Positions 3,100 through 55,640 of a stretch of DNA of 64,000 nucleotides are shown here, piece by piece. The stretch lies in assembly GCA_034780895.1 (NCBI GenBank), contig JAUZTB010000064.1:118914536-118978535 (forward strand), given 5' to 3'. The DNA is from Rhynchobatus australiae. Its lineage: Eukaryota. The notes under the pieces were generated by a model. It saw only the letters and a list, made by a program, of their open reading frames with translations, was not told the DNA's origin and ran no database searches. Each line of letters starts with the position of its first letter. Position 1 is the stretch's first letter. The position numbers and the translations under genes are program-made.

Positions 3100-3285
3100 T
3101 AGGCACATAGCTGGAAGAATTTTGGTTATGAGAAAAGATTAATAAGTAAGGAGTTATTTTCTTTGGAACAAGGAAGTCTTGGAGAAGATTTAATTGAGGC
3201 ATAAAGAATTATGGGAGGTCTAGACAAGGTGAACAGGAATGATCTATTTGGCAAAGTAGCTTGTAGCAGATTGGTCATTAGTTTA
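3100..3285 (+). mobile_element. CR1 LINE 3' fragment
   Basis: Decayed ERLxxLGLFSLEQRRLRGDLIEAYKIMGGLDKV-type motif. Confidence 0.65.
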
Positions 3286-3290
3286 ATGTA

Positions 3291-3490
3291 AAAACAAAAA
3301 ATACTGGAAGTACTCTGCACGTCAGGTAGCATCTGAGAAAAGAGATACAGAGTTAAGGTTTCAGGTCACTGACCCTTCATTAAGAACTGGTGAAGAATCA
3401 TTGACCTGACTCATTCATTATCTGTTTCTCCTTCCACAAATGCTGTCAGACTTTCTGACTATTTCCAGCATTTTCTGCTTTTATTTCAAC
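3291..3490. mobile_element. Palindromic Penelope-related element with degenerate hammerhead-like cores
   Basis: Left arm (aatactggaagtactc...gcatctg...agttaaggtttcaggtcactgacccttca) is an imperfect reverse complement of the right arm (tgaagaatcattgacctga...ccacaaatgctg...tttccagcattttctg). Confidence 0.65.
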
Positions 3491-5499: not shown

Positions 5500-5940
5500 A
5501 GCATTCCCATCAATCCCACTCTCCCACTTACTTCCCCATAACTTATTGTCTTTTACATGTCCATCAACTCCACCCTGATTCTTCTGCCACTCACCTACAC
5601 TGAGGGTAATTTATATCGGCCAGTTAATTTATTAGTAAATTCTGATGAAGCCTTTCAACCTGAAACATCAACAGACACCTTTTGCCTCCACAGATGCTGC
5701 TTGACCCATTGAGTTCTTCCAGCTTTCTGTTTTTTTAGTTCCAGATTCCAGCACCTGCAGTCTTTTTGCCTTCATAATTTATTAGCACGTCTTTGGAGTG
5801 TGGGAGGAAGCAAGAGCACTCGGTGGGGGGGGGGAGGGGGAATAACACAGTCACAGGGAAAATGTGCAAACTCAACATTAGCGTCCGAGATCAGGATCGA
5901 ACTTGGAATGCTGGAGTTCTGTGGCAGCTGCGCCACCAGG
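5500..5940 (-). mobile_element. HE1/V-SINE-like element interrupted by a nested insertion at 5636-5774
   Basis: Reverse complement shows a tRNA-like head (ggtggcgcagctgccacag) and V-domain (gagtttgcacatttt...ttcctcccacactccaaagacgtg). Direct repeats taatttattag flank the insert. Confidence 0.7.
5636..5774 (+). mobile_element. Penelope-related element with hammerhead-like core, single arm
   Basis: ttCTGATGAagcctttcaacctGAAAcatc...ccacagatgctgcttgaccc...ccagcacctgcagtc, flanked by an 11-bp duplication. Confidence 0.7.
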
Positions 5941-7308: not shown

Positions 7309-8705
7309 TGAAGTGGCCTAGCAAGTTCAGCTTATAAAAAAACAATTGCAACAGAACCCCCAGCATCAGCTTCTCGGGGCAATTAAGGAATAAGCAATAA
7401 GAGCAGCCTTGCTAATGATGTGCACATCCCCAGAACAAAATAACCTGAGCATGCACAGAGTCAAATCGCCTGCCACTTATTATTGCCTGGACTCTCAAAG
7501 CATTGACACCTGGGCACAGTACTGTAGGGTTTTTTGTCTCTGTGGACCTGAGCTGCAATATGATTATGAACCACCACCCTCAGGAGAAGAATAATAGGAG
7601 AAAATTAGGAGTGCTGAAATAAATGTAAAAATAAATCATTTTTTAAAGAATACTTCTTTTCCTCCAACTGATCTGTAGTCCTTAGAATGTTAAAAAAAAT
7701 AGTATTACCAGCTGCTACGTGATGTATGTAAATATTAATATTTGAGATCCTGCCTTTGTAAATTCATGCGTACAATTGTCAAAAGTGGAGATTGTAATTA
7801 TCCTTTGAAACAAGTGCATGCTTTCTTCTGATAAAGAACTGTTCTTTGTACTGTGTATGGTTTTTTTTAATGCTGTGACTCTTAGAATGTCAGCCTTTCA
7901 GTTTACTGAGTAATGTCTTAATGTGTAAGTGTAATAAACAAGCCAGTAAGACTGTGGTATATTGGAGCCTTGCCTGCTGATCGGTGGTATTGTACTAGTG
8001 GCAGGGGAGACATAACATTTTACTGTAACAATGCCAGACAAAATTAATCTTCAGTTGAGAATGCAGCAGCGTAGTGCCTTACGTGAAGTACAGTAAAGCC
8101 ACTGGTTGTTTAAAAGGCTGAAATAAAACTACAGCGGCTAATCCCCTGGGTTTCGTAGTCTACAGAAAGTCACTTGGTACACTGATGAAATATAGGCTCT
8201 CGTGAGCCATTTTATATAGTTTGATCTGGCTGGACTTTGCATTACAGTGGGTACTGGTTGTTTCACTTTGCTAATGAGCTATATTTCTTATATTCTGGTC
8301 TCCCACTTCCCAAACACAATTTTCTCACTTGATTTCTCCACTTTAGTCAGACTGGATGGGTAGATATTAGAAGAATATGAATACTTATCTCTTTATAATG
8401 AGCTGAATAGCCTTGTTTCCAGAGGCCTTGGGAACAAGCTACCCCACTCTCCTTATCATTTTAGAATTGTACATTGAGCAAAACACCAACTGCTGGGATG
8501 AGNNNNNNNNNNNNNNNNNNNNNNNNNNNNNNNNNNNNNNNNNNNNNNNNNNNNNNNNNNNNNNNNNNNNNNNNNNNNNNNNNNNNNNNNNNNNNNNNNN
8601 NNNNNNNNNNNNNNNNNNNNNNNNNNNNNNNNNNNNNNNNNNNNNNNNNNNNNNNNNNNNNNNNNNNNNNNNNNNNNNNNNNNNNNNNNNNNNNNNNNNN
8701 NNNNN

Positions 8706-8883
8706 CATGACTGGTAACCCTGGAGGCCCAGGTTACCTTGGAAACCAGCAGCAGGCAGTCATGATGAAACAGTTGTTGATGGAGCAAGAGAGACAGAGAA
8801 TGCATCAGATTCACATGATGGAGCAGCAAAAGCAGCAGCTATTCAGGGAGCAGAGGCAGCAGCAGCAGTTTCTGGCAGAGCAG
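8706..8883 (+). CDS. MAML3: Mastermind-like 3, internal coding exon (exon 3 equivalent); 5' part hidden in the N gap
   Basis: Translates MTGNPGGPGYLGNQQQAVMMKQLLMEQ...EQQKQQLFREQRQQQQFLAEQ, resembling recalled human MAML3 PGFLGSQPQAAIMKQMLIDQ...EQQKQQFLREQRQQ..ILAEQ. Donor CAG|gtaaat at 8883/8884 is phase 0. Confidence 0.88.
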
Positions 8884-9129
8884 GTAAATGATTATTATAG
8901 ATAGTTTCTGCAGGAAGGGCTGGAGCCCAGGATCCGTCTCGTACCTCAGAAGGGTACTGTCTTCAAGAATTCACAAATTAAATCCAAAGCTAGTCTAAAT
9001 GGAGGATACCCTTGTGAATTTGCCAAGTTCGTTATTTTCTCATTATGATCAGTGTCACACCGTGCTCTAAATCTGCGCACATATTTACTATATAATTTTT
9101 TTTATTTCTCACTCCTCCTTTGTGTCTCT

Positions 9130-19000: not shown

Positions 19001-19074
19001 GGAATGAATTGCATCTTCATTTTCAGGCAACAGGCACCTCCCCTTTAGGAGGTGCAGACATGGTTTCAATCAGG

Positions 19075-19200
19075 ATCAACGAACAATCTGCTGGAGGAAC
19101 AATCAGCGGATGTGGGGCATCTTTGGGAGGAAAGGAATTGTTGACTTTTCAGGTCAAAACCCTGATGCAGATTATTTGTTGCTCCAGATTCTTGTGTTTC
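19075..19200. mobile_element. Penelope-related hammerhead-like element, internally deleted palindrome
   Basis: aacaatctgctggaggaac...ggaattgttgacttttcaggtcaaaaccctgatgcag...ttgttgctccagatt matches the 37648-37760 copy in both orientations. Confidence 0.6.
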
Positions 19201-20459
19201 CGTGATTTCAACCAACACCAGCTATTTTCAACTGGTGCTTACCACTCACAATACTGCATCTTATGGAGTTACTCTAAGATACTTACCAGCATGGCCGGCA
19301 CCACAGTGAAGCCAATCACAACAACAAGGTGGGAACACAAGTTCTCAATGCATTTAGCATCAGTTAATCACATATTGCAATTCCAGCACTCTTTTTCCAG
19401 CACAATCCATTTTCTACCCACCATCTGATTTTGGCATTTGTATTGCCATTGTACCAGTGTGCCAATTAATCTATTTTATCATGGTGTTGTCCTGTGAATT
19501 GTACAATAATAATTAATTGCACCAACGGGAATGCCAATGTAACATTGAGGAAAAGTAATTGGTGGCCGGGAGTATGTTTTAGCATTGTCTCTGAAATTGA
19601 GTATTACAGTTGGGGGTGTCTGACCTTAACTTGCTTCTTCATCCTGACACTTGTTTTACCAAAACAAGTTCGCACCACTGAGCCACCTGCAGCACTGTCA
19701 GGGATTCAGCCATGTGCTCCCTTTGATCCGTGTTATTTGTGAAATCGCCTCTTTGCTGAATGAATCATTTCACATATGGGGTTTGCCAGAGTATTCAGAT
19801 GGATTTGCAGAGAACTGTGAAACTAAATGTTAACACTAACACAATGATTCACTCATCAGTGAAATCAGTGAAATTGCAGCAACTCAAAACGCCTTCGTTC
19901 CCACTAAGGGCCTTTTTGGAAAGACACCTCACATGCCTTATTTGTCAGTTTTTTAGAGTGCTTTACATATGTTAAGAGAAAAACCTCTTTAAAACTGATG
20001 TGAAAATTTTAATTTAATACTATTTTACATGCAATTATCCCCAATCTTAAGTTGTTCTGCAAGATTTTAATAATTAAGGCGCTGTCAGTGCAGGAGTAAC
20101 TTCACTATAAGTATGTAGATCAGTAAAGACCCAAGTTCGTTCCATGTGGTTACAACAGACAGCTATTTGATTTGCTCCAATTAGATCACCCTAAGGAGGG
20201 AATGTTAACTCTCTGATCAGATCTGAAGTTGTTGGAGGTGAGGAGAGAAGGTGTAGTATGATACTTCTCCCCTGCACTTTGCCCGAACAACACCTCCCAG
20301 TTAAATATAATGCCATCACTGATTATTTAGGCTCACACAGGAAGAAAGGCCACTTGTATGGCATACAGCTTGGATTCATATAGCGCTTTTAATCATTCCC
20401 AGTCTTCATGGGAGTTATCGCTAAACAAACTATAACACTAAAGATTAGGACTCACAAAA

Positions 20460-20577
20460 AGTCTTGGACTGGAAACATTAATGCTGTTTCTCTTTCCTCA
20501 GATGCTGGCTGACCTGCTAAGAGTTTCCAGCATTTAGTTTTTACTTCATATTTCCAGCATCTGCAGTTTTTTGATTT
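20460..20577 (+). mobile_element. Penelope-related element arm
   Basis: gaaacattaatgctgtttctctttcctcagatgctggctgacctgct...tttccagcatctgcagttt. Confidence 0.6.
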
Positions 20578-28677: not shown

Positions 28678-29780
28678 GTTTTGAGGAGGTAAGTAGCGAA
28701 CCTTACAATGATGAAGGAAGTCATCAATTGAAAATTGTAGCTGAGAATGAGGTGAGCAATTAAGAGAGATCTCTGAGCAGAAGTTATTAGATTATTGAAA
28801 GCATTCTTTCAGTAAGGGGATAAGGGAAGAGTCAATTAGACATTGGATTTGGAGTAAAATGTGGCAATGTTTAATGTTGACTAGTTTGCTGGATAGTTTG
28901 CAGAGGATTATGAATGCCAACCATAGGGTAGGTGTTTTTCAATAAAGAATAGGAGACTAAGGATGCTAGTCTTGGAAGGCAAATTCTAAGTATATATCGT
29001 CTGCTCCAAATCAAACTATGACAGGGTAACTTCAGTGACACAAGGAGGGGTAATGAATAAGTAGTATTTTCAAATATGAGGTTAATTCTTTGCAATGGTT
29101 TATCTGAGAACTTGATGAGGAAATCCACCATTTGCTGCATAACTAAAAGAACAGGAAAATCCCAGTTCAGTGTTGAAGTGGTTGATCTCAACAATGAGAT
29201 GTAATGGAGTGAAGACAAGTTAAGCTTGACCACACCTGAGAAGGACAGAAGAGGTGATGAGAGCCGAGAGTGCTCAGATGGAGAAACTGGCAAGAGAGCC
29301 CTTCTCCCAAAGATAATGCAGGAAATCAAGGGGTGGAAATTCCTTCTTAGTCGCATGTGTTAAATGCAGTATCTGTGCCATCTCTACTCATCTCCTGCTA
29401 GGAGCTGTGGCAGTTGGATTTGTGAGAGCCACTCTGGACATAAATCCCAGTCAGCTATATCTAAAACCTCCCAAGTTTGCACAAAAGGAAAGGCTTGACA
29501 AACATTCACAATGTTAAACTGTGTTGGTACTCATATTTTTAGCAGAATTCCCACTTAACCATGATACCAAGGAGCAATCAGACCAGTCAGTAGACCTTGA
29601 CATAAATCATTACTATCTAAACTTTAATGGAACTGATACTGTGAAATATGAGAAATACTTAATGCCATATCATTAATGTACAACAACAAAGTCTGATCAC
29701 AATCTGAATGAATATAATTTTAAAATGTTTTAACCCCATACAGTAAAAAAACAATGTTCTTTTATCTGTTTACACCACAG

Positions 29781-30751
29781 GCACAGCCCAGGAATTGGCG
29801 ACAGCAAGGAATCAAGCTCTCCAGAATGTGAGAAGTCCCAGAATGATGGCACAGAATCAGGGCATGATGCAGATGACACCGGTCCAGAATTCTGGTACGA
29901 TACCTGCCACCACTGGCCAGTCAGAGATTGGCATGGTACCCTACAATAATGCCCAGAGCAATCAACAAGGAATGTACAGTATGAGTCCAGGCATGAACCA
30001 AATTCTTCAGCATTCAAACCAAAGTAATGCGAACATGGCACGTAACGTTAGCCAGATGCAGAAACAGCCTGTTGCAGGACAAGGGGTTGGAATGGTAGCT
30101 GGTTATGGACAAAACTTACTTGGAAACCCTGTGTTGGCCCAACAGCAACAAGTGAAAGGACCGGTAGGGCAGCAGATGTCCAAGGCTCAAATTCAAAGAC
30201 TACAACTAATTGCAAGTTCTAGTTCTCCGGCTCAGAGTTGGCAGCAACATAGTTTACAGAACTTGCCCAACAGAACTCAGGCTAACAATGAGCTCAATCC
30301 ATTCAACAACAAATCAGCTTATCCAATGCAACCTGGTCAACCCAAGATGGCCAAGCAACATTTTTCCCAGGCAATGGGTCAGCCAGTTCTTGAGCCTGCT
30401 GGTGCAGTTGGAGGACAAATGATGCCTCATTTTGGAGGACAGCCAAGGACCAACCAGTCTAGACAAATAGTTATGTCTGGCATGACCCAGACAGTCCACA
30501 ATATGACTGGTTTTAACCAGGCCACAGGGCAACAGTTGGCAGGAGGCTGCTATGCACAGAGTAACCCAAGTCAAGGGTATCATACAAGAACCACAAGTCA
30601 GGACCTGTCCTTCAATTATGCCAGCCAATCAGGGGCTGGTTCCTTCTCTAATTTAACAGACAGTGTAGATCTGATGGACTCTCTAATCAAAAGTGGATCA
30701 ACAGAAGGCTGGATGCAAGAGTTTGACGAAATATTTGGTAGCCAGCAGTAG
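29781..30751 (+). CDS. MAML3: Mastermind-like 3, last coding exon (Q/M-rich region and C-terminal acidic domain)
   Basis: Acceptor tacaccacag|GC (phase 1). Reads (G)TAQELATARNQALQNVRSPRMMAQN...GQGVGMV...KGPVGQ...AQSWQQ...DLMDSLIKSGSTEGWMQEFDEIFGSQQ*, collinear with the MAML3 C-terminus. The convergent MGST2 neighbour matches human MAML3 synteny. Confidence 0.93.
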
Positions 30752-33864: not shown

Positions 33865-34085
33865 TTAAAAATGTACAGCAGATTAGGCAGTGTCTGTGGA
33901 CAGGAAAAAATTGAGTAAGTATTACTAATGGAAAACCTTACAGTAGAACTGGGTAATTCTGACACAAGTGTGTTACTTGAAATTGTTGGATTTGCTATTG
34001 AGTTTCAAAGACTGCATTGTGCCCAGATGGAAGATGAGCTCCTCTGTTTCTCTGACCTGCTGTGTTTCCAGCATTTTTATTCTTG
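33865..34085 (-). mobile_element. Penelope-like element remnant (GIY-YIG C-terminus between repeat arms)
   Basis: Minus strand 33973-34041 reads ELIFHLGTMQSLKLNSKSNNFK*, resembling the PLE ending (LIFRLGTLQPxGLNxEFxNF). It is flanked by arms of the cagatgctgc/tgacctgctg family. Confidence 0.65.
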
Positions 34086-34724
34086 TTTTTAATGCAGGGC
34101 AAAGGCCTGACACAGGATCGTCACACCAGTTCAAAGTGCTCCTGCAGTTCGAGGTTCCGTTTCGGAGAGTTACCAGCTGGAGACCTGAATACAATGTATT
34201 CATTGTATAAAATCATGAAGGTGATGTCAGCCATACATAGCATGGCAACTGATGCTCTCAAATGGAGGGGAGAAGAAAAGCATAAACATTCCCCTAAATT
34301 CCACAATGGCTGCAATGGCAGAGGTGTGGTGGGTTACCTATAGAGGCCCTTTAGTGGAACTAATGCTGGATCCATCTAAGCTCCATGACATATAAGGTGT
34401 CCAAAGTCCAGAAAGGCAATGGAGAGCCCTTTGCTTTATTAAGCTGCTGTCAGGTGAAGGGAATTGTACAATGGCACTCAGTCTACCCTGGGATATCTGC
34501 TCAGTGTGCCATCATTTGGCCAAAGGTTAATTTAGCTCCTGACCTTGGTTTTAAAAAGGCCTCAGGAAAGACGGCTTCCAAAGGTCCATAAATCCATGAG
34601 AGGGCCAATTACTTTATGGTGCTCAAACGTTGCTTTGTTGCATTGTTGGACACTGGTTACTTGGAAAATAGGTATCTGCATGGAGTGGTGGAGCAAGCAG
34701 AAATATACAGAAGAATGAATGTTG

Positions 34725-35200
34725 AAATCAAAATCTGCAGATGCTGGAACTCCGAAAGTCNNNNNNNNNNNNNNNNNNNNNNNNNNNNNNNNNNNNNNNN
34801 NNNNNNNNNNNNNNNNNNNNNNNNNNNNNNNNNNNNNNNNNNNNNNNNNNNNNNNNNNNNNNNNNNNNNNNNNNNNNNNNNNNNNNNNNNNNNNNNNNNN
34901 NNNNNNNNNNNNNNNNNNNNNNNNNNNNNNNNNNNNNNNNNNNNNNNNNNNNNNNNNNNNNNNNNNNNNNNNNNNNNNNNNNNNNNNNNNNNNNNNNNNN
35001 NNNNNNNNNNNNNNNNNNNNNNNNNNNNNNNNNNNNNNNNNNNNNNNNNNNNNNNNNNNNNNNNNNNNNNNNNNNNNNNNNNNNNNNNNNNNNNNNNNNN
35101 NNNNNNNNNNNNNNNNNNNNNNNNNNNNNNNNNNNNNNNNNNNNNNAGATGCGGCCTGACCTGCTGAGTATTTCTAACATTTTCTGTTTCTATTCCAGAA
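34725..35200. mobile_element. Penelope-related element, inverted arms around a gap
   Basis: aaatctgcagatgctggaac before the gap and agatgcggcctgacctgctgagtatttc...ttccaga after it. Confidence 0.55.
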
Positions 35201-35889
35201 GAAGTAAAGTTGTCATGCAGGTTAATAAGGCCACAATAGACCAAGGGTTTATTTCTAGAAGAAAGGATTTGATGAATAGAGGTGCTAAATGTGCGACAAT
35301 CTTATTTAAACCACATTTGGAATACTATTTACAGTTTTGTTTGCAAGATTATAGAAAGGATATAGAGGTAACATCCAGCTGAGACACAATGGTCATTGGA
35401 GGAACAAAGGATACAACACTTCAAGACAACCTAGTCTGGAGGAATATTTTACAGCTACACTCCCCTACACTATCCCAGTTTTGGACAGTCCCTGAAGTAG
35501 TGCTCTCCAGCCTGTTCTATCGTTAAGGCCCACACTGTCCACATACTATATACTCATTGTATAAAGTCGTGAAAGTGATGTCAGTCACACACCACATGGC
35601 AAATGATGCTCCTCAACCTTCATACTTAAGCATATCATCTGCACAGAGGGCTGTGATTGATATACTTCATGAGCATATACAGTAAGTGGTTGAGTTGTCA
35701 ATCAAACACAGTTGTGAATCACATAAAATTGCTACACAATGCAGTGGAACTTCTTGCCAGAGTATTTTGTCAAATGCAGGAGCAAAATTAAAGGCCATTT
35801 CTATAAGGCAATTAGAGTGTACAATACTATGGGTTCCTAGCTTTCCAGTGATATAACAGGCAGTGTGTCCAGAGTAAGAAAAGAAACAT

Positions 35890-37220
35890 GTTACATTTGA
35901 CAATAATAAACCAAATTATCAAGGTACAGTGAAAAACTTTGTTTTGCATGTCATCCATACAGATCATTTCATCTCATCAGTGCATTGAGATAGTACAAGG
36001 GAAAAACAATAACAGAATGCAGAATAAAGTGTTACAGTTACAGAGAAAGTGCAGTGNNNNNNNNNNNNNNNNNNNNNNNNNNNNNNNNNNNNNNNNNNNN
36101 NNNNNNNNNNNNNNNNNNNNNNNNNNNNNNNNNNNNNNNNNNNNNNNNNNNNNNNNNNNNNNNNNNNNNNNNNNNNNNNNNNNNNNNNNNNNNNNNNNNN
36201 NNNNNNNNNNNNNNNNNNNNNNNNNNNNNNNNNNNNNNNNNNNNNNNNNNNNNNNNNNNNNNNNNNNNNNNNNNNNNNNNNNNNNNNNNNNNNNNNNNNN
36301 NNNNNNNNNNNNNNNNNNNNNNNNNNNNNNNNNNNNNNNNNNNNNNNNNNNNNNNNNNNNNNNNNNNNNNNNNNNNNNNNNNNNNNNNNNNNNNNNNNNN
36401 NNNNNNNNNNNNNNNNNNNNNNNNNNNNNNNNNNNNNNNNNNNNNNNNNNNNNNNNNNNNNNNNNNNNNNNNNNNNNNNNNNNNNNNNNNNNNNNNNNNN
36501 NNNNNNNNNNNNNNNNNNNNNNNNNNNNNNNNNNNNNNNNNNNNNNNNNNNNNNNNNNNNNNNNNNNNNNNNNNNNNNNNNNNNNNNNNNNNNNNNNNNN
36601 NNNNNNNNNNNNNNNNNNNNNNNNNNNNNNNNNNNNNNNNNNNNNNNNNNNNNNNNNNNNNNNNNNNNNNNNNNNNNNNNNNNNNNNNNNNNNNNNNNNN
36701 NNNNNNNNNNNNNNNNNNNNNNNNNNNNNNNNNNNNNNNNNNNNNNNNNNNNNNNNNNNNNNNNNNNNNNNNNNNNNNNNNNNNNNNNNNNNNNNNNNNN
36801 NNNNNNNNNNNNNNNNNNNNNNNNNNNNNNNNNNNNNNNNNNNNNNNNNNNNNNNNNNNNNNNNNNNNNNCTCTCAACCCTCTCGACCTCAGCACCATTG
36901 ATGTAAATAGGAGCATGTGTACCGTCCCCCTTCCTGAAGTCAATGACCAGCTCTTTTGTTTTGCTGACATTGAGGGAAAAATTGTCATGACACCATGCCA
37001 CTAGGCTCTCTATCTCTTTCCTGTACTCTACGTCATCGTTATTTGAGATTTGGCCCATTACGGTGGTGTCATCTGCAAACCTGTAGATGGAGTTGGCACA
37101 GAATCTGCCTACACAATCGTGATTGTACAGGGAGTAGAGTAGGGGGCTGAGGACACAGCCTTGTGGGCACTGATGTTGAGGCTAATCGTGGCGGAGGTGT
37201 TGCTGCCTATCCTCACTGAT
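35890..37220 (-). mobile_element. Rex1/Babar-like LINE (RT fragment to 3' tail, middle in gap)
   Basis: Minus strand reads QGCVLSPLLYSLY...FADDTTVMGQISNNDD..YRKEIESLVAWCHDN.SLNVSKTKELVIDFRK. Confidence 0.85.
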
Positions 37221-37647: not shown

Positions 37648-37760
37648 GAGTCCTGATGCAGGGTTTTGACCCGAAACGTCTGCAATTCCGTCCCTCCACC
37701 CCCCCCCACAGATGTTGCTCAACCAGCTGAGTTCCTCCAGCAGATTGTTTGTTGCTCCAC
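37648..37760 (+). mobile_element. Penelope-related element with the best-preserved hammerhead-like core
   Basis: gagtc-CTGATGCA-GGGT-tttg-ACCC-GAAA-CGTC (core 37653-37680), then cagatgttgctcaaccagctgagttcctccagcagattgtttgttgctcca. Confidence 0.7.
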
Positions 37761-38284
37761 ATACCTTCACAATCTGTTTGCTATCCATTTTCTTCTTCAA
37801 ACTGTCTGATGGTCTTAGCACATGAATCTTATATAATCCTCCCTTTACTGCAGGTGTCATGATATTTGCTTTGTTTCNNNNNNNNNNNNNNNNNNNNNNN
37901 NNNNNNNNNNNNNNNNNNNNNNNNNNNNNNNNNNNNNNNNNNNNNNNNNNNNNNNNNNNNNNNNNNNNNNNNNNNNNTTTCTTCTTCAAACTGTCTGATG
38001 GTCTTAGCACATGAATCTTATATAATCCTCACTTTACTGCAGGTGTCATGATATTTGCTTTGTTTCAACTTCTTACCTTGCCTTCCAGTTTCAGCCGAAC
38101 CATACCCAGAAGCATCTTGTGTCTTCTGTGCACCAGCATTTCTGCAAGAGTGTATTCATCATGGAGTGCCGTGTTACTCTGAAGCTTGCAAGAAAATCTG
38201 TGAGTTGATATTTCGTAGTGAGACCTGATGTGCTGTGCGTGACTTGCTTCTTTTGCACCTCTTTCACTACACCAACTGATCTCT

Positions 38285-39253
38285 CAGCTTTTGATAAACA
38301 TTAAGGTGAATAAGTCCCCAGGTCATGATGGAATCTATCCCAGGACACTAAGGCAGGAGGTTGCTGGGGCCTTGACCAAGATCCTTGTACCTCTTTTGCC
38401 ACAGGCACAGTCCCAGAAAACTGAAAAATAGCCAATATTGTTCCTTTGTTTAGGAAGGGCAACAGGGACAAACCAAGAAATTATAGGTCAGTGTGCCTTA
38501 CATCAGCAGTAGGGAAATTACTGGAGAGGATTCTTAGGAACAGGATTTACTCGCGTTTAGAAAAGCATTGACTAATTAGGGATAGTCAACATGGCTTTGT
38601 GAGGGAGAAGTCCTGTCTCACAAATTTGAGTTATTTGAGGAAGTGACAGAGATGATTGATGAGGTTTGGGCAATGGATGTTGTCCACATGGACTTTAGTA
38701 AAGATTAGACAAGATTCCTCATGGTAGCCTAGTCCAGAAGATTAAGTCCCATGGGATCTATGGTGTGTTGGTAAATTGGATACAAAATTGAATTGGTTGT
38801 AGAAGACAGTGTTGGAGGGGTGTTCCTCTGACTGGAGGTCTGTGTTCTGCAAGGATCAATGCTGGCACTTCTGTTGTTCGTCATATATATAAATGATCTG
38901 AATGACAATGTAGGTGGTCTGATTAGTAAGTTTGCAGGTGACACAAAAATTGGTGGAGTTGCAGATAGTGAGGAAGGTTGTCAAAGGGTACAGCAGGATA
39001 TAGATCAGTTTGGCATTTGGGTGGAGAAATGGCAGATGGAGTTTAACCTGGACAAGTGTGAGGTGTTGCATTTTGGGAGGTCAAGTGCAAGAGGAAAGTA
39101 TACAGTAAATGGTAGGACACTTAGGAGCATTGATGGACAGAGGGAACTTGAGGTACAAGTCCATAGCTCTCTGAAAGTGGCAAAACAAGTAGATAGGGTG
39201 GTCAAGAAGGCATACAGCATACTTGCCTTCATCAGTTGGGGTACTTAGTGTAA
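38285..39253 (+). mobile_element. CR1 LINE reverse transcriptase fragment with frameshifts
   Basis: KSPGHDGIYPR, GNRDKPRNYR, QHGFV, YINDL..ISKFAGDTKIGG, WQMEFNLDKCEVLHFG. Confidence 0.9.
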
Positions 39254-41830: not shown

Positions 41831-42354
41831 AGATTAATGCATGCTAAAAAGGGCACAGATATTAAGGCAAAGCACAACGGTGATCAGTTTCATTTTGTAC
41901 TTGATACAGTATCAATTCATTTAAAAATTTGGTTTGGAATGTTTTGTGGTGAATTTTAATTCTGCATTATGGCCATTAACAAAGGGCAAGTAGTGTGGGG
42001 TTTTTTTTGTGAATGAGGAATTGAGAAGTGCTTACTGATATAATACTCAGATTAGTTCTTCATGAACAATCGAGCAGAAAGTGGGTGTCTGGGTTGCAGC
42101 CTTGGTTCTCCTCTTCCTCCTCCTCCTGCTTATGGTTTTGCTTCTCAGCAACACCTCACGGATTGGAGTGGGGGGGGGGGCGAGGGGGGCTCAAGAAGGC
42201 TGTTCCCACATGAAACTTCAACTCAGCAGATGGGTCAAATGGCATTTGTGGGGTTTTGGGAGAGTGAGAGTAGAGTTGGCACTCTGATTACTGACCAGCC
42301 ATGGGATGGGTGAGGGAGGAGAATGGGGGAATCATTGCCCCGGGACTTCAACTA

Positions 42355-42920
42355 TTTCCTCTCTCTGCAGATTCTCCTGAGCAGAAGACGGTTCGCAGGT
42401 TTTTCTGTTTTTGTTTCAAATTTCCGGCACCTGTGGTATCTTTATGCTTTGCAATCAATATCATATTCTAACATATCTCAGTTCTTCCATCTCCACAGAT
42501 GCTGCCTGACCTGCTGGGCTTTCCCAGCATGCTCTTCAGCTTCCGGTTTCCAGCAACTGCTCTCTTCTGTACCTCACAGTTCTAGCAGAATTTTTTTACT
42601 TCCTTCCTCTGCCCTCTCTCTATTTGCATCTCCTTCAGATGAATTAGCTGCCACTAACAAACTTTCATAGCCCTTTCCCAGTCACCACCACTCTGTGCCA
42701 TCCATTTTCTCTGAGTCTCCATTCTATCAAAGACATCTGATTTTCTCTCTCTATCGCTACAAATTTAAACATGTCTGCTTTCTAATTTTTTTCACATCTC
42801 TGAAGAAAAATCATCAACCTGAGGCATTAACTCTGTTTCTCTCTCCACAGGTACTACCCGACTTTTTGCGTATTTAGATTCTACTTCAGATTTCTACCAT
42901 CTGCATTTTTTTTTTGCTTT
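42355..42920 (+). mobile_element. Three direct, decayed arms of the Penelope-related element
   Basis: Arms near 42360, 42490 (ctccacagatgctgcctgacctgctg) and 42800 (ctgaagaaaaatcatcaacctgaggcattaactctgtttctctctccacag). Confidence 0.55.
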
Positions 42921-55522: not shown

Positions 55523-55640
55523 ATCAAAAAAAAAACAGCAGATGCTGGAAACCTGAAATAAAAACAGAAAACACTGGAAAACCTCAGGAGGTCAAGCAGC
55601 ACCTGTGGAAAGAGAAACCATTAACATTTCAGTTCTGATG
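55523..55640. mobile_element. Penelope-related element arm running into a gap
   Basis: cagcagatgctggaaacctgaaataaaaacagaaaacactgg...cagcacctgtggaaagagaaaccattaacatttcagttCTGATG, then Ns. Confidence 0.65.

Follow-up and report, generated by a model that had tools for sequence, protein, structure and literature searches.

The window analysed here is a stretch of 64,000 nucleotides of Rhynchobatus australiae (contig JAUZTB010000064.1). On its plus strand, at 37649..37759, a profile match (E 5e-35) marks a putative stub of a Neptune-type Penelope-like element (PLE), that is, a 5'-truncated and tail-less pseudo-LTR (pLTR) belonging to the C-core subfamily described below. According to sequence and alignment, the first part of the stub, at 37650..37683 (+), is a minimal type I hammerhead scaffold with the architecture reported in PMC4209133. 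Indeed, the 5' strand of stem I (37650-37652) is followed on the same strand by the core CTGATGC with C at position 9 (37653-37659), an extra A between core and stem II (37660), a stem II of 4 bp (37661-37664/37669-37672), GAAA (37673-37676), the palindromic CG of ACGU (37677-37678), U16.1-C17 (37679-37680) with the predicted cut after 37680, and the 3' strand of stem I (37681-37683), which is mutated in the window copy. A preliminary description of this DNA had placed a hammerhead-like core at 37653-37680, and this is where it is found. The rest of the stub (37684..37759, +), referred to as the arm, would be the leader of the element's ORF, given that long copies run into the ORF N-terminus, and would end at a reverse-transcription start site, as suggested by the clustering of copy ends. 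Compared with the subfamily majority, the window copy shows 8 substitutions over ~ 102 aligned bases and a C-rich insertion, and its 3' end corresponds to the first of the two clusters of 3' ends described below. With its broken stem I, this copy is probably inert. No target-site duplication was found adjoining its ends.

Other features were noted in the vicinity. A 334-aa Q-rich frame at 29747-30751 (+) matches the Mastermind-like 1/3 TAD2 (PF20801, E 1e-26) and likely corresponds to the final exon of a MAML gene, of which a Q-rich piece at ~ 8700-8900 may represent a further exon; the hammerhead stub lies ~ 7 kb downstream of the MAML frame. The frames at 35964-37181 (-) and 38832-39248 (+) presumably resemble RT fragments of other non-LTR retrotransposons. 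Finally, an 89-nt near-exact duplicate (37789-37877 and 37978-38066) flanks a 100-N gap and is an assembly artefact, of the sort that also accounts for the apparent tandem in L284.

Further copies were searched for with profiles built from genomic copies, both in the window and in 40 evenly spaced 10-kb stretches (345,747 non-N bases). The search returned 13 matches in the window and 81 in the genome sample, compared to 0 versus these 94 in the reversed-sequence control, in agreement with the earlier claim of a multi-copy element. For the bases sampled, this is a density of one copy per 4.3 kb. The genome size is 2.2 Gb, and a rough extrapolation would give ~ 450,000 copies of all subfamilies genome-wide, while C-type copies, roughly extrapolated from 13 sample matches, would number in the tens of thousands. 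The copies had also been described as degenerate, and none of the 18 near-full C- or A-type copies of the random sample was found to keep the intact motif, CpG sites being the most decayed positions.

Within the window, the arm had been reported to recur at eight other sites. Profile matches are observed at seven of them (3291, 5636, 19075, 20460, 33865, 42355 and 55523), but the site at 34725 retains no more than a tail fragment of ~ 35 nt, found by eye, that abuts an N gap. As delimited by the profile search, two older-subfamily stubs form a head-to-head pair at 3274..3490 (minus strand 3274-3389, plus strand 3383-3490), and a decayed stub, in which position 9 is A, lies at 5637..5766 (+; profile match E 3e-20, alignment). 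Another older-subfamily stub, whose core is largely lost, is located at 20449..20574 (+), and two older-subfamily fragments on opposite strands occupy 33876..34101 (33876-33954 minus, 34052-34101 plus). The tail fragment seen by eye (34725-34760, minus) and a piece of arm (35147-35207, plus) flank the N gap within 34725..35207. Three decayed older-subfamily stubs follow on the plus strand at 42330..42907 (42330-42440, 42486-42558 and 42793-42907), and a last one, at 55533..55637 (-), runs into an N gap. The second insertion of the C subfamily in the window, at 19062..19190, was delimited by profile search and sequence and is inverted head to head, with a minus-strand stub at 19062-19165 and a plus-strand piece at ~ 19161-19189. 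The CTGATGCAG noted earlier near 19162 does belong to the C subfamily, but it is not a second intact core, as it sits at the pivot of the head-to-head inversion (19161). At 19161-19169 the C gives rise, within the core, to a short inverted repeat (CCTG/CAGG), where the inversion of this insertion, as well as that of several fetched loci, has its pivot. Head-to-head inversions of stubs are hence observed at 3274-3490, at 19062-19190 and in fetched loci, and inverted 5'-truncated copies are described as typical of PLEs (PMC8557442).

Core variants were counted as exact 27-nt genome-wide patterns with the same stem II. Sorted by position 9, the exact cores number 499 with A, 403 with C and 36 with G or T together, and the control patterns gave 0. 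Clustering on the sequence downstream of the cut site, of copies many of which were fetched by core pattern, separated a group of 173 copies (164 with C) from one of 57 (53 with A), and BIC favours no extra clusters inside C. Moreover, C is found at position 9 in 56 of the 63 C-type copies fetched without core pattern. The C is thus common to its cluster, including copies collected independently of it, which places the change in the master element. The existence of several subfamilies, with the position-9 C as a trait of one of them, had been proposed beforehand; both points are upheld by these counts, and U4A and older subfamilies are to be added to the C and A groups. Regarding position 4, cores without U gave 586 exact matches and, among the matches listed, 78 of 100 are U4A, from which the size of the U4A subfamily is estimated at about 450 exact cores. 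This subfamily (e.g. G000, L306-L324) has its own linker and an intact 5-bp stem I, and a colinear GIY-YIG remnant is seen in one of 16 loci. Positions 4 and 9, which are changed in the U4A and C subfamilies, are normally invariant positions of the hammerhead core.

The subfamily majority has stems I and II, GAAA, the palindromic 15.2-16.2, NUH and the extra base before stem II, and the earlier assignment to the minimal type I hammerheads of the Penelope kind can be retained. As for conservation of the consensus core CUGANGA, the lack of which had been named as a possible refutation, it is present in the A subfamily, and the C subfamily consensus departs from it through the C at position 9. 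The scan with Rfam covariance models, suggested at the same time, gave no match in the window or in four near-majority loci, one of them with a canonical core; the models miss the minimal form. Stem I is reduced from 5 to 3 bp in the C subfamily, the predicted pairing of stem II is 0.98 in A versus 0.54 in C, and a competing hairpin is predicted at 0.23 only in the C subfamily. Both stems, GAAA and the ACGU palindrome are nevertheless kept in all subfamilies and the older subfamily displays a compensatory change in stem I, which together argue for some constraint. Between the A and C subfamilies, 2 of 34 positions differ in the ribozyme and 14 of 86 in the arm, a contrast that is not significant (p = 0.23) and is compatible both with relaxation and with purifying selection on the C ribozyme. 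In four runs labelled as different organisms, one of which may be the source sample, contigs likewise hold the C-type stretch; the C variant is therefore probably not private to this genome.

Minimal hammerheads are known from the pLTRs of metazoan PLEs (Cervera and de la Pena 2014, PMC4209133). Upstream of the hammerhead in the longer copies, a ~ 470-nt pyrimidine-rich UTR is met first, then the end of a GIY-YIG domain, and then an RT. A stop-free RT piece of 260 aa gives matches to 15 proteins among 902 candidates, carrying PF00078 and/or PF26215, and its best five named matches are from cartilaginous fishes, including Chiloscyllium, Hypanus and Rhincodon. In the full-length relative P0008, which aligns colinearly to many genomic loci, RVT_1 and GIY-YIG are both above Pfam cut-offs. 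Single genomic copies are below these cut-offs (RVT_1 E 0.014, GIY-YIG E 0.14; sub-threshold matches in 2 of 11 open pieces), and none of nine read-through frames of broken copies has a Pfam match. When loci were fetched by RT DNA alone, a core could be read downstream in 12 of 30, and it has C at position 9 in 12 of 12 (one is the query's own locus; 11 of 11 besides). On the other side, the sequence that follows the arm is homologous to the beginning of P0008 and P0009, and loci fetched by the ORF N-terminus carry the arm directly upstream in 7 of 29 cases. The pLTR is thus found on both sides of the ORF, and in locus L303 the order is UTR piece, ribozyme, arm, ORF and UTR. Taken together, the RT and GIY-YIG upstream, the ORF start downstream and the order in L303 indicate that the motif is the pLTR of a PLE and the arm its ORF leader. 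On these sequence grounds, the window feature is classed as a truncated pLTR of an EN+ PLE, encoding an RT followed by a C-terminal GIY-YIG.

A C-x4-C-x2-C linker between RT and endonuclease is read in the translations of L049, L137 and L140 and in P0008/P0009. According to PMC8557442, a CX2-5CxxC linker at this place distinguishes the Neptune and Nematis clades, and the element would consequently be of Neptune (or Nematis) type, the clade being assigned by the linker motif alone. It shares with the Neptune-type EN+ PLEs of the same source a single ORF for RT and C-terminal GIY-YIG, the Cys-rich RT-EN linker, the pLTR, 5' truncation, inverted 5' copies and a 30-40-bp tail, but differs from them in that no intact copy, and no intact ORF, was found among the element copies. 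In the C-subfamily leader (majority sequence; L237, L223 and others), an AUG of the arm sits after a strong pyrimidine-CAG splice-acceptor-like site and opens an upstream frame of ~ 39 codons, whose stop lies just past the likely main start codon; the A-subfamily leader differs in frame from that of the C subfamily.

Copy ends were mapped in a set of 59 copies for which the 27-nt core was the sole criterion of choice. Of these, 54 had readable 3' ends and 56 readable 5' ends; the 5'-end set had to hold the whole core, and ends inside the core are therefore excluded by design. The 3' ends form two clusters ~ 35 nt apart, at +87..+100 (22 of 54) and at +125..+135 (24 of 54), a spacing that matches the optional 30-40-bp Penelope tail and the two RT start sites described in PMC11167929. 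The 5' ends lie at most 10 nt upstream of the core in 29 of 56 copies, the remainder being spread over 200 nt or more. In a second list, similarity is lost right before AGTCC in 48 of the 100 copies listed (hand count). Copies of the random sample likewise mostly start near the ribozyme 5' edge and not at the cut site, from which we infer that uncleaved RNA was the template.

Several origins of this 5' edge were considered. Ends defined by cleavage are ruled out, given that copies neither begin nor end at the cut site. A spliced template, in which the 5' edge would behave like a 3' splice site, is ruled out as well, no upstream exon being common to the short copies. A cap-derived G was suggested by GAGTCC starts, which proved to be a query bias: the unbiased list has no G excess at the 5' edge (A 17, C 17, G 10, T 4; 48 of 100 copies listed, hand count). 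The ribozyme 5' edge resembles an initiator element, and it is conceivable, as a tentative reading on the weaker side of even, that transcription starts there; the RNA reads described below show no pile-up of starts in its favour.

Nearly fixed 5' and 3' ends in about half of the copies could also mean that the short copies are a separate non-autonomous SINE-like element of ~ 135 nt, derived from the pLTR and having its own master, instead of stubs; pLTR sequence alone is able to drive insertion in trans (PMC3846280). We regard this as unlikely, as one majority sequence is common to short and UTR-linked copies, the clustering prefers the two groups C and A over short versus long, and the 5' ends scatter over ~ 10 nt and often pivot into inversions.

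The preliminary description had seen here a non-autonomous, retrozyme-like family. A non-LTR retrozyme would consist of tandem hammerhead-bearing monomers spreading via circular RNA, and such elements, derived from PLE pLTRs, are reported in one chondrichthyan (bioRxiv 10.64898/2026.07.22.740005). The type I hammerhead and the pLTR origin are indeed common to these and to the present copies, but the retrozymes of that report are tandem units each with a complete hammerhead, of which none was seen here. The copies are single or inverted, though assembly gaps could hide arrays. The one close same-strand pair that was fetched (442-bp, C27) is a duplicate across an N gap; a second close same-strand pair is listed at C1:77969346/77969935. 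Together with the position of the ends away from the cut site, the existence of ORF-linked and RT-linked copies speaks against a protein-less retrozyme, which makes this explanation highly improbable. The retrozyme-like label is accordingly replaced by that of dispersed single or inverted stubs of an RT-/GIY-YIG-encoding element, given the same C-core in the RT-bearing loci and the arm before the ORF start, and the arm, as read from its genomic context, is an ORF leader and not a free-standing RNA.

Very probably, then, the window feature is a 5'-truncated end-piece, made up of a minimal hammerhead and an ORF leader, of an RT-/GIY-YIG-encoding Penelope-like retrotransposon, likely produced when the element's own protein began to reverse-transcribe uncleaved RNA from within the arm, and the ribozyme of its subfamily is predicted to be weak or dead. 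In such a process, the endonuclease would nick the DNA, the RT would prime in the arm, at either of two sites, and would copy back through the intact, uncleaved ribozyme, and about half of the copies would stop at the ribozyme 5' edge, maybe the transcript 5' end. The Poseidon element of Anolis (PAc; PMC11167929) resembles this situation, with two RT start sites downstream of the hammerhead that define the tail and with uncleaved RNA as template, as inferred here. However, PAc belongs to a different clade and its ORF starts inside the hammerhead, whereas the likely start codon here is ~ 165 nt downstream of the core. The A9C and U4A subfamilies each reach copy numbers like those of the canonical one, hence self-cleavage is likely dispensable for their spread; it is also conceivable that canonical elements mobilised them in trans. 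In vitro, hammerhead mutants are reported to be without effect on PLE insertion (PMC11167929), and the role of the hammerhead in PLEs is called unclear in PMC8557442.

The predicted weakness of the C-subfamily ribozyme is in keeping with the part played by A9, which anchors the general base G12 and whose phosphate binds the catalytic metal (PMC6961537). In PMC3088659, C3-A9 is taken as the consensus core and repeat-borne mutants are rejected, and single mutants of the CUGA turn, where U4A lies, are described as having low activity (PMC9901934). A register shift could still keep the C-core active, in that the extra A would serve as A9 and the C would be bulged between G8 and A9, perhaps with the help of the element's protein. 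In fact, G10.1 is still immediately preceded by an A, as it is in canonical hammerheads, the C-subfamily majority keeps all other core bases, both stems and the palindrome, the Anolis PLE ribozyme is reported to cleave only with protein (PMC11167929), and activity is reported to survive some natural core insertions (PMC3088659). On the other hand, the C subfamily has its stem I down to 3 bp and the predicted competing hairpin; the phosphate of A9 and the 2'-OH of G8 belong to one catalytic metal site (PMC6961537), which an insertion between them should disturb; and the sister subfamily with its change in the CUGA turn points to general relaxation. Activity of the C-core is thus considered quite improbable, and a weak or dead ribozyme is preferred. 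If the C-core were active and kept because the retrotransposon protein aids its folding, it would mean, together with U4A, that changes at two "invariant" positions are tolerated by natural hammerheads, over genomic copies numbering in the tens of thousands.

The element resembles the minimal hammerheads of PMC4209133 by its type I fold without loop III, the palindromic 15.2-16.2, G10.1-C11.1, the extra base between 9 and 10.1, and the predominance of solitary or opposite-strand copies from truncated PLEs. It differs by the C at position 9, the A at position 4 in the sister subfamily, where U3-A8 is the only core variant in the text consulted, and by a stem II of 4 bp and a stem I of 3 bp. In a literature search covering listings and passages, no report of A9C or U4A PLE hammerheads or of shark PLE hammerheads was found. 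What appears new from the sequences is hence the A9C and U4A subfamily variants, the element class and the window copy themselves being ordinary. The genome offers a natural experiment: a subfamily with the canonical core can be compared with two sister subfamilies, about equally abundant, whose cores are changed at conserved positions. Should the variants fail to cleave, evolution itself would testify that spread does not depend on cleavage; should they cleave, the core of the hammerhead would be more plastic than its consensus suggests.

RNA reads were available as three raw runs of "organism A", which may not be the source species, with 15,678-35,750 matching reads each, on both strands. 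Of these matching reads, 97-98% run on into unrelated sequence, and no pile-up of read starts or ends was seen. The reads fit passive read-through and are silent on cleavage. In run X20, ~ 3,000 reads at L280:995-1031 contain a short C-type core with the same flanking sequence, both left and right of it, and a single host transcript of "organism A" thus carries a C-type stub at high level.
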